DNA from: a phage
Length of the DNA: 64,000 nucleotides
Sequence record: PZ452595.1
Strand: one strand, 5' to 3'
The notes under the pieces are model-generated. The model was not told the origin of the DNA and did not search any database. It saw nothing but the letters and a program-made list of their open reading frames with translations. A program made the translations under genes and the position numbers. Positions 31,877-63,352 of this stretch are shown piece by piece. How positions within the stretch are numbered: the stretch's first letter is position 1; every line of letters begins with the position of its first letter.

Positions 31877-31944
31877 TTTTATTCTCCGAGATGTTTAATT
31901 GCGGTACAGATATATAATATCATATCTTGTACCAAAGTAAACAA

Positions 31945-32304: not shown

Positions 32305-32334
32305 ATACTATCACAAAGGAACCGTACTGTAAAC
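32305..32334 (-). promoter_or_regulatory. Putative sigma70-type early promoter
   Basis: On the - strand: GTTTAC (plus 32329..32334), 18-bp spacer, TGA-TAGTAT (plus 32305..32310); same architecture as the duplicated cassette. Confidence 0.4.
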
Positions 32335-35859: not shown

Positions 35860-35921
35860 TTCAATTTCCTCATTTGTTTTGGTAGAGCTATAATATCACA
35901 ACTCTACCGTAAAGTAAACCA

Positions 35922-47406: not shown

Positions 47407-47466
47407 TTTATTCTCCTCAGTAGTTGATAGGGTAATAGTATCACACTACTACCCTGTTGTAAACAA

Positions 47467-48391: not shown

Positions 48392-48494
48392 ATTATTTTC
48401 CTCTTTAATTATCAGCAGTATTGCCGATAGTTTTATAGTACCATGGAAGGACAAGGATGTAAACAGTTTTGCGAAAAATTTTTAAAATAAAAAA

Positions 48495-51705: not shown

Positions 51706-51767
51706 ATGAACCTCGTTCAATTAGTGAGATTTCTATTATATACCATCTAAATCTTAAAGTAAACAAG

Positions 51768-62337: not shown

Positions 62338-62610
62338 TTATTTGTTCGTATACATCTCTAGATATCGATATACACCCTCAAAACCCTCGTTGAATTCGTC
62401 GATGAGGGTTTTCTTATCTTCCTGAGTTAATTCAGAAACAATTTTACGGAATGAATTCTGATTTAACTTTCTACCTTCATGCGTTACTCCAATCTCATTC
62501 AGAAATGCAATAAAATTAGCACGATTTTCAACAATATCTTCTCTGGAAAATTTAATCAAAATAGACGCAACAGTAATAATTTCACGAACTGTATCAATGT
62601 TTTTATTCAT
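62338..62610 (-). CDS. asiA: Anti-sigma70 protein AsiA
   Basis: 90 aa, same length as T4 AsiA. Confidence 0.93.
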   Translation of the reverse strand: MNKNIDTVREIITVASILIKFSREDIVENRANFIAFLNEIGVTHEGRKLNQNSFRKIVSELTQEDKKTLIDEFNEGFEGVYRYLEMYTNK

Positions 62611-62622
62611 TAACTATACCAC

Positions 62623-62775
62623 TCAATTAGTTGACTTTGTTATAATATCATCAGACGCTTGATTTGTAAACTGGTCTGTGTTATTTTCTTCAAAAATTTT
62701 TTCTACGAATTCCTTGAACGACTCACGTTCCTGAGCTACATTGTGCTCGATTACCTTTTCAAGATTATGACTCAT
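62623..62775 (-). CDS. Possible 50 aa acidic ORF between asiA and arn
   Basis: Hand-translated MSHNLEKVIEHNVAQERESFKEF...; its ATG overlaps the arn stop as ATGA. Confidence 0.35.
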   Translation of the reverse strand: MSHNLEKVIEHNVAQERESFKEFVEKIFEENNTDQFTNQASDDIITKSTN

Positions 62776-63050
62776 TCGAAATAATCTTCAATTTCGTAAT
62801 CATGGACATAAATCATTATAGTTTTTAATACATCATCAATACTTTTTCCTGGAGCTGGAATTACGTAAAAATATCCTACTTTTGAGAGGTCTTTATAAGT
62901 TCCAATTAAGAAATCGTTATTCTCAAGATGTAGTTCTTCAACTAATTCATTGACAATTGAATGGTATAGATTTGGTAGAAACTTATATAGCTTTTCTAGA
63001 ATATCAATTTTGATTGTGTATTGAACCACGGATTGAGAATCAATAATCAT
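62772..63050 (-). CDS. arn: Arn anti-restriction protein (McrBC inhibitor)
   Basis: 92 aa acidic protein in the T4 arn position. Confidence 0.75.
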   Translation of the reverse strand: MIIDSQSVVQYTIKIDILEKLYKFLPNLYHSIVNELVEELHLENNDFLIGTYKDLSKVGYFYVIPAPGKSIDDVLKTIMIYVHDYEIEDYFE

Positions 63051-63133
63051 AGACCTTCCCCTTATGTTTCTGTTTGCGATTAGATTCTTTAAACGCTTTC
63101 TTCTTATCCTTATGAACAGAAGCTTTATTAAAA

Positions 63134-63352
63134 TTATGTTTTGCGACTAAATTGTTCATAGTGCTGAATTACCTCTCTCAAACATTTGCATGTGAATGAA
63201 AACTTTTTAGCTACACCACATTCAAATATATGTTCTCTTAAATCACATGTATCGGTATATCCCATCTCAACAATAAAATGCCGTATTAGATTTTTATCTT
63301 TATCATTGAGAGAATTAAAATAATCAGATTTTGAATTAATTTCCCTGGCCAA
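63134..63352 (-). CDS. Hypothetical Cys-containing protein (arn.1 position)
   Basis: 72 aa ORF. Confidence 0.5.
   Translation of the reverse strand: MAREINSKSDYFNSLNDKDKNLIRHFIVEMGYTDTCDLREHIFECGVAKKFSFTCKCLREVIQHYEQFSRKT

Follow-up and report, generated by a model that had tools for sequence, protein, structure and literature searches.

The analysed window is a stretch of 64,000 nucleotides of phage DNA (sequence record PZ452595.1), and the region at its end is of the T4-type t / asiA / arn kind. The ORF list contains three genes on the - strand at this end, namely asiA, a 50-codon ORF and arn. Arn is an anti-McrBC DNA mimic, and AsiA is a sigma-70 binder that serves as a co-activator of middle transcription. 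The AsiA protein of the window is 100% identical to T4 AsiA in many records. A preliminary description of the locus had reported a small acidic ORF between these two genes, with an ATGA overlap with the arn stop codon and an end 12 nt before asiA. The obtained sequence agreed with the overlap and the spacing, and the two neighbours were identified by Pfam as named. The ORF translates as MSHNLEKVIEHNVAQERESFKEFVEKIFEENNTDQFTNQASDDIITKSTN (50 aa) and is acidic as stated, with a pI of 4.60, 11 D+E vs 5 K+R and a net charge of -6.3. The gap from arn to asiA measures 161 nt. The junction with arn reads ...ttcgaATGAgtcat..., and at the other end the TGA is followed by the 12 nt GTGGTATAGTTA (62622-62611) and then by the asiA ATG (62610). 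The features of the locus are listed in Table 1.

Table 1. Coordinates of the genes, overlaps, segments and signals at the end of the window.
Feature	Position	Strand	Basis or remark
arn (92 aa), upstream gene in the same transcription unit	62772..63050	-	Pfam DM_Arn 3.5e-53; phrog_3151
asiA.1 CDS (50 codons + TGA), 153 nt	62623..62775	-	ORF list; ortholog of T4 T4p256 / NP_049867 / UniProt Q9T0T0
asiA (90 aa), downstream gene served by the promoter embedded in asiA.1	62338..62610	-	Pfam AsiA 1e-42
ATGA overlap: asiA.1 ATG (62775-62773) with arn TGA (62774-62772)	62772..62775	-	Sequence
asiA.1 codons 1-10, MSHNLEKVIE	62746..62775	-	Only segment with clear protein-level constraint across genera
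asiA.1 codons 1-30, predicted amphipathic acidic alpha-helix with conserved F20-x-x-F23-(V/L/M) face	62686..62775	-	AlphaFold2
A6T5 homopolymer run (codons 25-28), indel hot spot, in A/T-rich region upstream of the promoter -35	62692..62702	-	
asiA early promoter, read as codons 36-45	62642..62671	-	Promoter scan, 10/12 matches + extended -10
asiA.1 stop TGA (62625-62623) overlapping the asiA Shine-Dalgarno-like GAGTGG (62624-62619), with the 12-nt spacer	62611..62625	-	Sequence

The description of this ORF as unannotated did not survive comparison with the T4 record. The ORF is the already catalogued T4 gene asiA.1, which has been in the T4 reference annotation for decades and is annotated in most Tequatrovirus genomes. 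In NC_000866 it is listed as T4p256 (NP_049867.1, 'AsiA.1 hypothetical protein') between asiA and arn, and its UniProt entry is Q9T0T0 / Y16A_BPT4. The T4 gene has the same position between arn and asiA, the same length, the same ATGA overlap and the same 12-nt spacer; the two are one and the same gene, the window coming from a phage closely related to T4. The T4 protein, translated from NC_000866 161163-161315, is identical to that of the window at 49 of 50 residues, with the sole difference at residue 32 (N here, Y in T4). Peptides of the protein include VIEHNVAQER and IFEENNTDQFTNQASDDIITK (N32 form here; Y32 form in T4). Over the 713-bp arn-asiA segment, T4 and the window are 97.1% identical.

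The distribution of the gene was assessed in several sequence collections. The profile phrog_3762, labelled 'unknown function', matched asiA.1 end to end (E 7.1e-38, residues 1-50 on profile 1-50/50). An 801-bp query around asiA.1 matched 490 phage records at 90-99% identity; the closest genome was that of Serratia phage PhiZZ30 (99.1% over 801 bp), where asiA.1 is annotated. By tblastn, the frame was found in 485 phage records, all of them Tequatrovirus and nearly all with at least 92% identity, and a CDS was annotated under the match in almost all of these. The frame was intact in 483 of the 485. A search of 5.8 billion proteins returned Tequatrovirus copies alone (14 clusters, identity at least 82%), and scans of IMG/VR and metagenomes added 15 further loci, all but one near-identical; the locus L019 was a chance match. 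As a discovery the ORF matters little, being present in hundreds of genomes, detected by mass spectrometry and screened by CRISPRi.

A promoter scan revealed a single strong sigma-70-type site within asiA.1, on the - strand (TTTACA-17 nt-TATTAT, preceded by TG). Its parts are a -35 element GTTTACA (62671-62665), a 17-nt spacer, TGn (62650-62649) and a -10 element TATTAT (62647-62642), with the A/T-rich tract GAAAAAATTTTTGAAGAAAATAAC upstream of the -35. Within the frame, the -35 is read as F36-T37, TGaT as D42-D43 and the -10 as I44-I45. From these elements, transcription would start near 62635, ~25 nt before the asiA ATG. Orsini and colleagues are said to have placed asiA downstream of a T4 early promoter in 1993. 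The architecture of T4 early promoters (UP/-35/TGn/-10 class) has been reviewed (Hinton, 2010, PMC2988021), and the site belongs to this class by its -35 GTTTAC(A/T), 17 +/- 1 nt spacer, TGn, -10 TAnnAT, A/T-rich upstream DNA and short leader to a Shine-Dalgarno sequence and ATG. The pattern GTTTAC-N17-19-TANNAT occurs eight times in the 64-kb window vs 0.73 expected; seven of the eight are on the - strand, each lies 20-35 nt before a Shine-Dalgarno sequence and ATG, and most have TG two bases ahead of the -10. The asiA promoter shares GTTTACA, the 17-nt spacer, TGn and TATTAT with T4 early promoters and matches the six other - strand sites of the window, but it differs in lying wholly inside an upstream coding frame instead of an intergenic spacer and in having no preceding terminator hairpin.

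The preliminary description had missed this promoter, which accounts for about a third of asiA.1 as the asiA early promoter read as codons. The share of A/T-rich promoter DNA in the gene is ~43%. As roughly the last third of asiA.1 is promoter, mutations there must be read as promoter mutations. This promoter is also found ahead of asiA in every other enterobacterial T4-like genus examined, and phage Lutter carries an annotation for it. In CF1, JD18, Ent31 and STP4-a it is intergenic, and in RB69, dhaeg, RZ, phiR1-RT, Potts1 and LC53 it overlaps the 3' end of an ORF. The -35 is read in different frames: as GTT TAC AAT in RB69 (...VYNQH before the stop) and as cAG TTT ACA AAT in the T4 type (...QFTNQ...). 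Mosigvirus homologs end in ...AVYNQH or, when frameshifted, in ...PFTINTDNGTISISTKWNE, each followed by a stop, the latter passing through the same promoter to the asiA start. Since the lineages read the promoter in different frames, the C-terminal tail of asiA.1 is conserved as DNA and not as protein, in agreement with its low confidence in the AlphaFold2 model.

In 4.2% of shuffles of the 165-nt stretch, the asiA.1 strand had 50 or more consecutive open codons. The frame is only mildly unusual as a bare ORF, so that its standing as a gene depends on comparative and proteomic evidence. Among 1.84 billion representative proteins, a profile search yielded three credible relatives in all, which included one more distant relative of 48 aa (P0039) on the contig L041; a fourth match (P0040) was dropped, as it covers 18 residues of a 2711-aa protein. 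The gene order of L041 matches that of the window (arn.3, arn.2, arn.1, DUF7230, arn, ORF, asiA, with t on the opposite strand). Between the window and L041, asiA.1 shows 48% amino-acid identity and a dN/dS of 0.35 (synonymous 14.5/25.5 vs nonsynonymous 34.5/118.5; Fisher p 0.018), arn shows 49% and 0.36, and asiA shows 68% and 0.09. Within asiA.1, codons 1-10 gave a pN of 0.12 vs a pS of 0.89, and codons 11-30 gave 0.43 vs 0.65.

The N-terminal sequence MSHNL(E/Q) also starts the ORF just upstream of asiA in RB69 (Mosigvirus), dhaeg (Dhakavirus), RZ (Gaprivervirus), phiR1-RT (Tegunavirus), CF1 (Moonvirus), JD18 (Jiaodavirus), LC53 (Winklervirus) and the unclassified contig L041. Across these eight further lineages the MSHNLE codons vary synonymously (AGT/AGC, CAT/CAC, AAT/AAC, CTT/CTA/TTA, GAA/GAG). 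Between genera, codons 2-6 are saturated at synonymous sites with unchanged amino acids, and codons 11-17 are saturated for nonsynonymous change. Because MSHNLE is unchanged despite the synonymous codon changes, the N-terminus is under protein-level selection. MSHNLE is conserved as protein in eight further lineages, mostly distinct Tevenvirinae genera, and the N-terminal decapeptide is the only part demonstrably selected as protein. Conservation in relatives, which had been put forward as a check on the frame, was found in the 485 records, in the 48%-identical L041 ortholog and in the recurrence of MSHNLE. asiA.1 is a genuine gene.

Within Tequatrovirus, variation was analysed on an alignment of 26 distinct haplotypes of the arn-asiA.1-asiA segment, in which distinct variants were counted. 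The ratio of nonsynonymous to synonymous variants was 14:31 for arn (pN/pS 0.11; 12, 5 and 28 variants at codon positions 1, 2 and 3), 4:23 for asiA (pN/pS 0.04; 7, 1 and 19) and 15:6 for asiA.1 (pN/pS 0.55; 6, 7 and 8). The variant spectrum of asiA.1 differed sharply from that of arn and asiA together (Fisher p 1.8e-4). Within the genus it was indistinguishable from neutral (binomial p 0.16), with no excess at third positions. When the gene was divided, codons 1-34 gave 9:5 (pN/pS 0.36; 4, 4 and 6; binomial p 0.07 vs neutral), and codons 35-50 gave 6:1 (pN/pS 1.6; 2, 3 and 2). In its two alternative reading frames, the DNA gave ratios of 0.98 and 0.76. On these counts asiA.1 is weakly constrained, and in the comparison with L041 the constraint is weak outside codons 1-10.

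Length variants were concentrated in the A6T5 run, with a +1 A frameshift in phage a15, a +6 T insertion in frame in phage Lutter and a +3 insertion in P0004. P0013 and P0014 are frameshifted products of 44-45 aa, and in one T2 record a 2-nt deletion shortens the protein to 48 aa. An antisense ORF at 62659..62784 (+, TTG start, 41 aa) was rejected as a gene, being annotated solely in a15, whose asiA.1 is broken by the homopolymer frameshift. An 8-bp inverted repeat around the asiA.1 start codon was not conserved in L041, and an RNA element was rejected, as Rfam gave no match of note and the fold z-score was +0.22.

The time-resolved proteome of T4 (Wolfram-Schauerte et al., 2022, PMC9697503, Table S3) includes Q9T0T0 / Y16A_BPT4. 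It was recorded at t0, 1, 3, 5, 8, 12, 20 and 30 min in triplicate, for T4 and not for the phage of the window. The LFQ value of AsiA.1, given per protein and without a list of peptides, was 0 in the first 11 samples, 3.3e7 in replicate 3 of t5 and 3e7-2.8e8 in 12 of 12 samples from t8 to t30 (PMC9697503, Table S3). In the same proteome, Arn reached 1-3.7e8 and AsiA up to 1.7e9 (PMC9697503, Table S3). Translation, the other check that had been proposed, was thus confirmed by the detection of the protein in all samples between 8 and 30 min, which shows that the asiA.1 frame is translated in T4.

The authors of the proteome classed asiA.1 as 'early RNA / late protein' (PMC9697503). A late promoter behind this class was rejected, since no TATAAATA occurs near the locus. 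The upstream sequence gaaattgaagattatttcga contains no GGAG/AGGA that could act as a Shine-Dalgarno sequence for asiA.1. Given this lack and the ATGA overlap, initiation of asiA.1 is probably coupled to the translation of arn, and such coupling would account for AsiA.1 being less abundant than Arn and detected later. Weak, coupled translation accounts better for the late detection than a late promoter does. In the genome-wide dCas13d translation knock-down of T4 (CRISPRi-ART; Adler et al., 2025, PMC11879866), asiA.1 was scored 'Not Fit' (score -0.44, p 0.87), and its prior essentiality status was listed there as 'UNKNOWN'. asiA.1 is a non-essential, dispensable small-protein gene. The main text of the searched literature held no mention of asiA.1, T4p256, Q9T0T0 or NP_049867 in a phage context.

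The predicted structure of AsiA.1 consists of a single helix, for which AlphaFold2 gave pLDDT values of 87/95/90 over residues 1-30 vs 61/57 over residues 31-50. The hydrophobic moment was highest at residues 9-30. Searches for function gave no family in Pfam, where the only hit was the sub-threshold Thr_dehydrat_C (16 bits vs a cutoff of 27), nothing below E 0.04 in the PDB sequence search and 0 matches in the Foldseek search of BFVD. The homologs of asiA.1 are frequently labelled 'anti-sigma factor' in GenBank and UniRef. An identity with AsiA (PF09010) was rejected, as AsiA.1 had no Pfam AsiA match at E <= 1 and BLASTP against AsiA gave no alignment at E <= 100. Because asiA.1 is without similarity to AsiA, the label is wrong and is an annotation-transfer error. 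As for a DNA mimic of the Arn type (PF22134), no DM_Arn match was obtained, and acidity is the only feature in common. Both Arn and AsiA resemble AsiA.1 in being small, acidic (pI 4.55 and 5.42), early and part of the same transcription unit, but they have no detectable sequence similarity to it and are under strong purifying selection (pN/pS 0.11 and 0.04 vs 0.55). This neighbourhood had led the preliminary description to regard the ORF as a candidate for a host-takeover function. Our best guess is that AsiA.1 is a small helical protein that binds a partner and plays an accessory part early in infection.

The slot upstream of asiA is occupied by several PHROG families. PHROG 3762 is found in Tequatrovirus (50 aa), PHROG 5245 in Mosig-, Dhaka- and Gaprivervirus (53-54 aa), PHROG 24016 probably in Tegunavirus (a tentative assignment), PHROG 7272 in Moon-, Jiaoda-, Karam- and Gelderlandvirus (85-90 aa), and PHROG 25736 in Marfavirus and, by C-terminal resemblance, probably Winklervirus (101-112 aa). 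Each of these families is narrow in the 5.8-billion-protein database. They are joined solely through their first 16-36 residues; profile matches across families cover residues 1-16 to 1-36 (E 1.7e-4 to 5e-2) and give no whole-length homology of asiA.1 to PHROG 5245, 7272, 24016 and 25736. The sequence MSHNLExV(I/V)E, together with the position directly upstream of the asiA promoter, recurs in Mosig-, Dhaka-, Gapriver-, Teguna-, Moon-, Jiaoda- and Winklervirus and in L041. With BLASTP, residues 1-24 of asiA.1 aligned with the Gaprivervirus homolog (E 2e-5). In the Acinetobacter phage Lazarus the slot is absent and motA abuts asiA.

The members of PHROG 5245 (RB69ORF258c, Dhakavirus dhaeg_6 and Gaprivervirus RZ gp004) share with asiA.1 the slot, MSHNL(E/Q), a pI of 4.6-4.7, an F/Y-x-E-(F/L)-(L/V) helix motif and a 3' end that overlaps the -35 of the asiA promoter. 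They are unrelated in sequence to asiA.1 after about residue 25, stop just past the -35 (...VYNQH or ...VYNPEE) and read this element in a different frame. A Shine-Dalgarno sequence of their own is present in some, and Dhaka- and Gaprivervirus have no arn upstream. The long forms of PHROG 7272 (CF1 gp176 and JD18_244; 85-90 aa) and PHROG 25736 (Potts1 gp157 and LC53; 101-112 aa) occupy the same slot. An N-terminal helix is present in all of them, and some begin with MSHNLE(N/S)V(I/V)E, but they carry an extra alpha/beta domain (AlphaFold2 pLDDT 80) that is wholly absent from asiA.1. This domain had no neighbour in the PDB (Foldseek best E 2.3, TM 0.27), and a DUF2829 or Tad2-like fold was rejected for it, with no Pfam match, no PDB sequence match at E <= 10 and a negative Foldseek result.

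Taken together, we consider it fairly probable that asiA.1 is a genuine, weakly constrained, non-essential small-protein gene of the early arn-to-asiA transcription unit, which is translated by coupling, has its N-terminal helix as the working part and a by-product tail, and plays an accessory role. Translation of arn would lead to a coupled start of asiA.1 at the ATGA. The working part would be the N-terminal amphipathic acidic helix of ~30 residues, which may dock on a host or phage protein via the N-terminal decapeptide and the F-x-x-F-(V/L/M) face. The C-terminal 16-20 residues would be a disordered by-product of the ORF crossing the promoter up to the asiA ribosome-binding site. The role of the protein would be accessory and is probably host- or condition-specific.

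Three other explanations were weighed against this reading. The frame could act in cis, such that what matters is the passage of ribosomes through the 161-nt arn-asiA interval on read-through early transcripts, which would protect against Rho-dependent polarity or mRNA decay and bring ribosomes to the start codon of asiA 12 nt downstream, with the peptide as a by-product. Rho-dependent polarity on untranslated T4 early RNA is established (Hinton, 2010, PMC2988021) and speaks for such a role, as do the ATGA coupling at the 5' end and the overlap of the stop codon with the Shine-Dalgarno-like GAGTGG of asiA. The near-neutral substitution pattern within the genus, the tolerance of in-frame indels (Lutter +6 nt, P0004, P0008) and the knock-down without fitness effect (PMC11879866) point the same way, and some ORF fills the slot in every enterobacterial T4-like genus examined, its sequence being replaced between genera. 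However, the frame itself contains a strong early promoter for asiA, and most asiA mRNA should therefore not need upstream translation. In CF1, JD18, Ent31 and STP4-a the upstream ORF ends before reaching the promoter, 55-75 nt short of asiA, and in L041 it stops 20 nt from asiA and starts without an arn overlap; with the stop distances so different and the L041 start away from arn, the coupling geometry is not conserved. A role in cis would also leave unexplained both the protein-level conservation of MSHNLExVIE through synonymous changes and the existence of a stable, detectable protein, and we regard it as unlikely.

We think it improbable, too, that the gene is a decaying remnant, the N-terminal stub of a longer pre-asiA protein (85-112 aa in Moon-, Jiaoda-, Karam-, Gelderland-, Marfa- and Winklervirus) that is fused to promoter read-through, translated and functionless. 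The long forms have just their first 10-36 residues in common with asiA.1 (phrog_5245/24016/25736 cross-matches, E 3e-4 to 5e-2), members of phrog_7272 match the short-form profiles 5245 and 24016, and the alpha/beta domain of the long forms is missing from asiA.1. Decay would agree with the relaxed constraint within the genus, with the frameshift variants and homopolymer indels and with the dispensability of the gene. It is difficult to reconcile with a frame that stays open and syntenic across ~50% amino-acid divergence at a dN/dS of 0.35 and is intact in all but two of the 485 records. Moreover, at least five lineages (Tequatro-, Mosig-, Dhaka-, Gapriver- and Tegunavirus) as a rule have forms of 48-55 aa, and for this reason the short form may be ancestral. 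That the frame is no gene and lies open by chance over a promoter-containing intergenic region is extremely improbable. The ~4% of shuffles that are equally long, the ~43% share of A/T-rich promoter DNA and the lack of a Shine-Dalgarno sequence would fit a chance frame, but this is contradicted by the proteomic and comparative data, with the protein detected in 13 consecutive proteome samples, the N-terminus conserved at the protein level across genera and the frame kept in L041.

The recurrence of MSHNLExV(I/V)E in otherwise unrelated proteins of 48-112 aa from five PHROG families, which always lie just ahead of asiA, may, as a rather doubtful extension of the preferred reading, mark a shared docking helix by which different Tevenvirinae genera attach lineage-specific effector parts to one conserved partner, e.g. 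AsiA or part of the transcription machinery of the host. asiA.1 would then be the minimal form of a modular early-infection factor, and its tail a documented coding sequence born from promoter DNA. A partner found for the N-terminal helix would reveal what a whole group of T4-like orphan genes does. The decapeptide links five previously unconnected PHROG families across at least eight lineages.

The region upstream of arn was found to contain a lysine-rich reading frame of 39 amino acids (phrog_1359), which shares its last 11 nt with the beginning of arn. An identical frame is present in T4, where the reference record (NC_000866) carries no annotation for it and displays a gap between arn.1 and arn. 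The ortholog in L041, an unclassified contig and distant relative with the same arn, asiA.1 and asiA gene order, carries the Pfam domain DUF7230. Comparison with L041 yielded a dN/dS of 0.07; the frame is under strong constraint. In the Dhaka-, Gapriver-, Teguna- and Marfavirus genomes, the 39-aa frame directly adjoins the pre-asiA ORF, the reading frame immediately upstream of asiA, with no arn between them.

The pre-asiA position, held by asiA.1 in Tequatrovirus, is occupied by proteins of PHROG 7272 (85–90 aa) in Jiaoda-, Moon-, Karam- and Gelderlandvirus (JD18_244 at L009 855-1121; P0028-P0036; L006 850-1122). The AlphaFold2 model of these proteins was fairly confident (pLDDT 80) and presented an N-terminal helix followed by a small α/β domain, within which C39, H40, W53 and W85 were invariant. 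A Foldseek search of the model identified no PDB neighbour (best E 2.3), and the long-form protein is proposed from the model as an orphan fold candidate. Upstream of the pre-asiA ORF, Citrobacter phage CF1 encodes a 128-aa protein (FDI95_gp175, L006 474-860) which RefSeq designates as the major head protein; this label looks like an annotation error. The naming of asiA.1 itself is also affected, as many GenBank and UniRef entries (e.g., teqskov, EC121, fPS-90 and N2) call the ORF an anti-sigma factor. Given that the asiA.1 protein displayed no similarity to AsiA, this designation is a carry-over from the adjacent gene.

Features located in and around the arn–asiA region, together with further early promoters of the window.
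Feature	Position	Strand	Sequence or basis
39-aa lysine-rich ORF	63040-63159	-	MNNLVAKHNFNKASVHKDKKKAFKESNRKQKHKGKVYDY; phrog_1359
Perfect 8-bp inverted repeat, bracketing the asiA.1 start codon	62761-62788	-	AAGATTAT...ATAATCTT
A6T5 run, indel hot spot within asiA.1	62692-62702	-	compared loci, including L005 1501-1556 and L004 801-959
Terminator-like hairpin, 14 pairs, then T-rich tail	62380-62412	+	AAAACCCTCGTTGAATTCGTCGATGAGGGTTTT
T4-type early promoter	31914-31942	-	pattern match
T4-type early promoter	32305-32334	-	pattern match; GC-rich hairpin and T-run immediately before
T4-type early promoter	35890-35919	-	pattern match
T4-type early promoter	47435-47464	-	pattern match
T4-type early promoter	48435-48464	-	pattern match; GC-rich hairpin and T-run immediately before
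T4-type early promoter	51735-51764	-	pattern match

Within asiA.1, length variation was concentrated in the A6T5 run. Phage a15 carries one additional A, which breaks the frame and explains why its annotators called an antisense ORF instead; phage Lutter carries six additional T, and several assembled variants show +3 insertions or frameshifts. These indels may represent either sequencing errors or real slippage. A separate 2-nt deletion in an Escherichia phage T2 record (PV648363.1; L027, 701-847) lies within the asiA promoter embedded in asiA.1, inside its -10 hexamer (gatat--taac), thereby altering this element and shortening asiA.1 to 48 aa.

In the minimum free energy fold, the asiA.1 AUG falls in the 12-nt loop of the inverted repeat. 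The repeat was identical across all 26 Tequatrovirus haplotypes of the segment and was not kept in L041; the folding z-score around it was unremarkable. At the other end of asiA, the holin gene t converges on and abuts asiA with zero spacer, and the terminator-like hairpin, which begins 43 nt past the t stop, sits antisense within asiA, towards the 3′ end of its coding region.

Matches to the T4-type early promoter pattern (GTTTAC-N17-19-TAnnAT) revealed six promoters besides that of asiA, each located 20–35 nt 5′ of a Shine-Dalgarno sequence and ATG, and most with a TGn element. At 32334 and 48464, the hairpin and T-run directly before the promoter make up, as predicted from the sequence, a terminator-then-early-promoter cassette.
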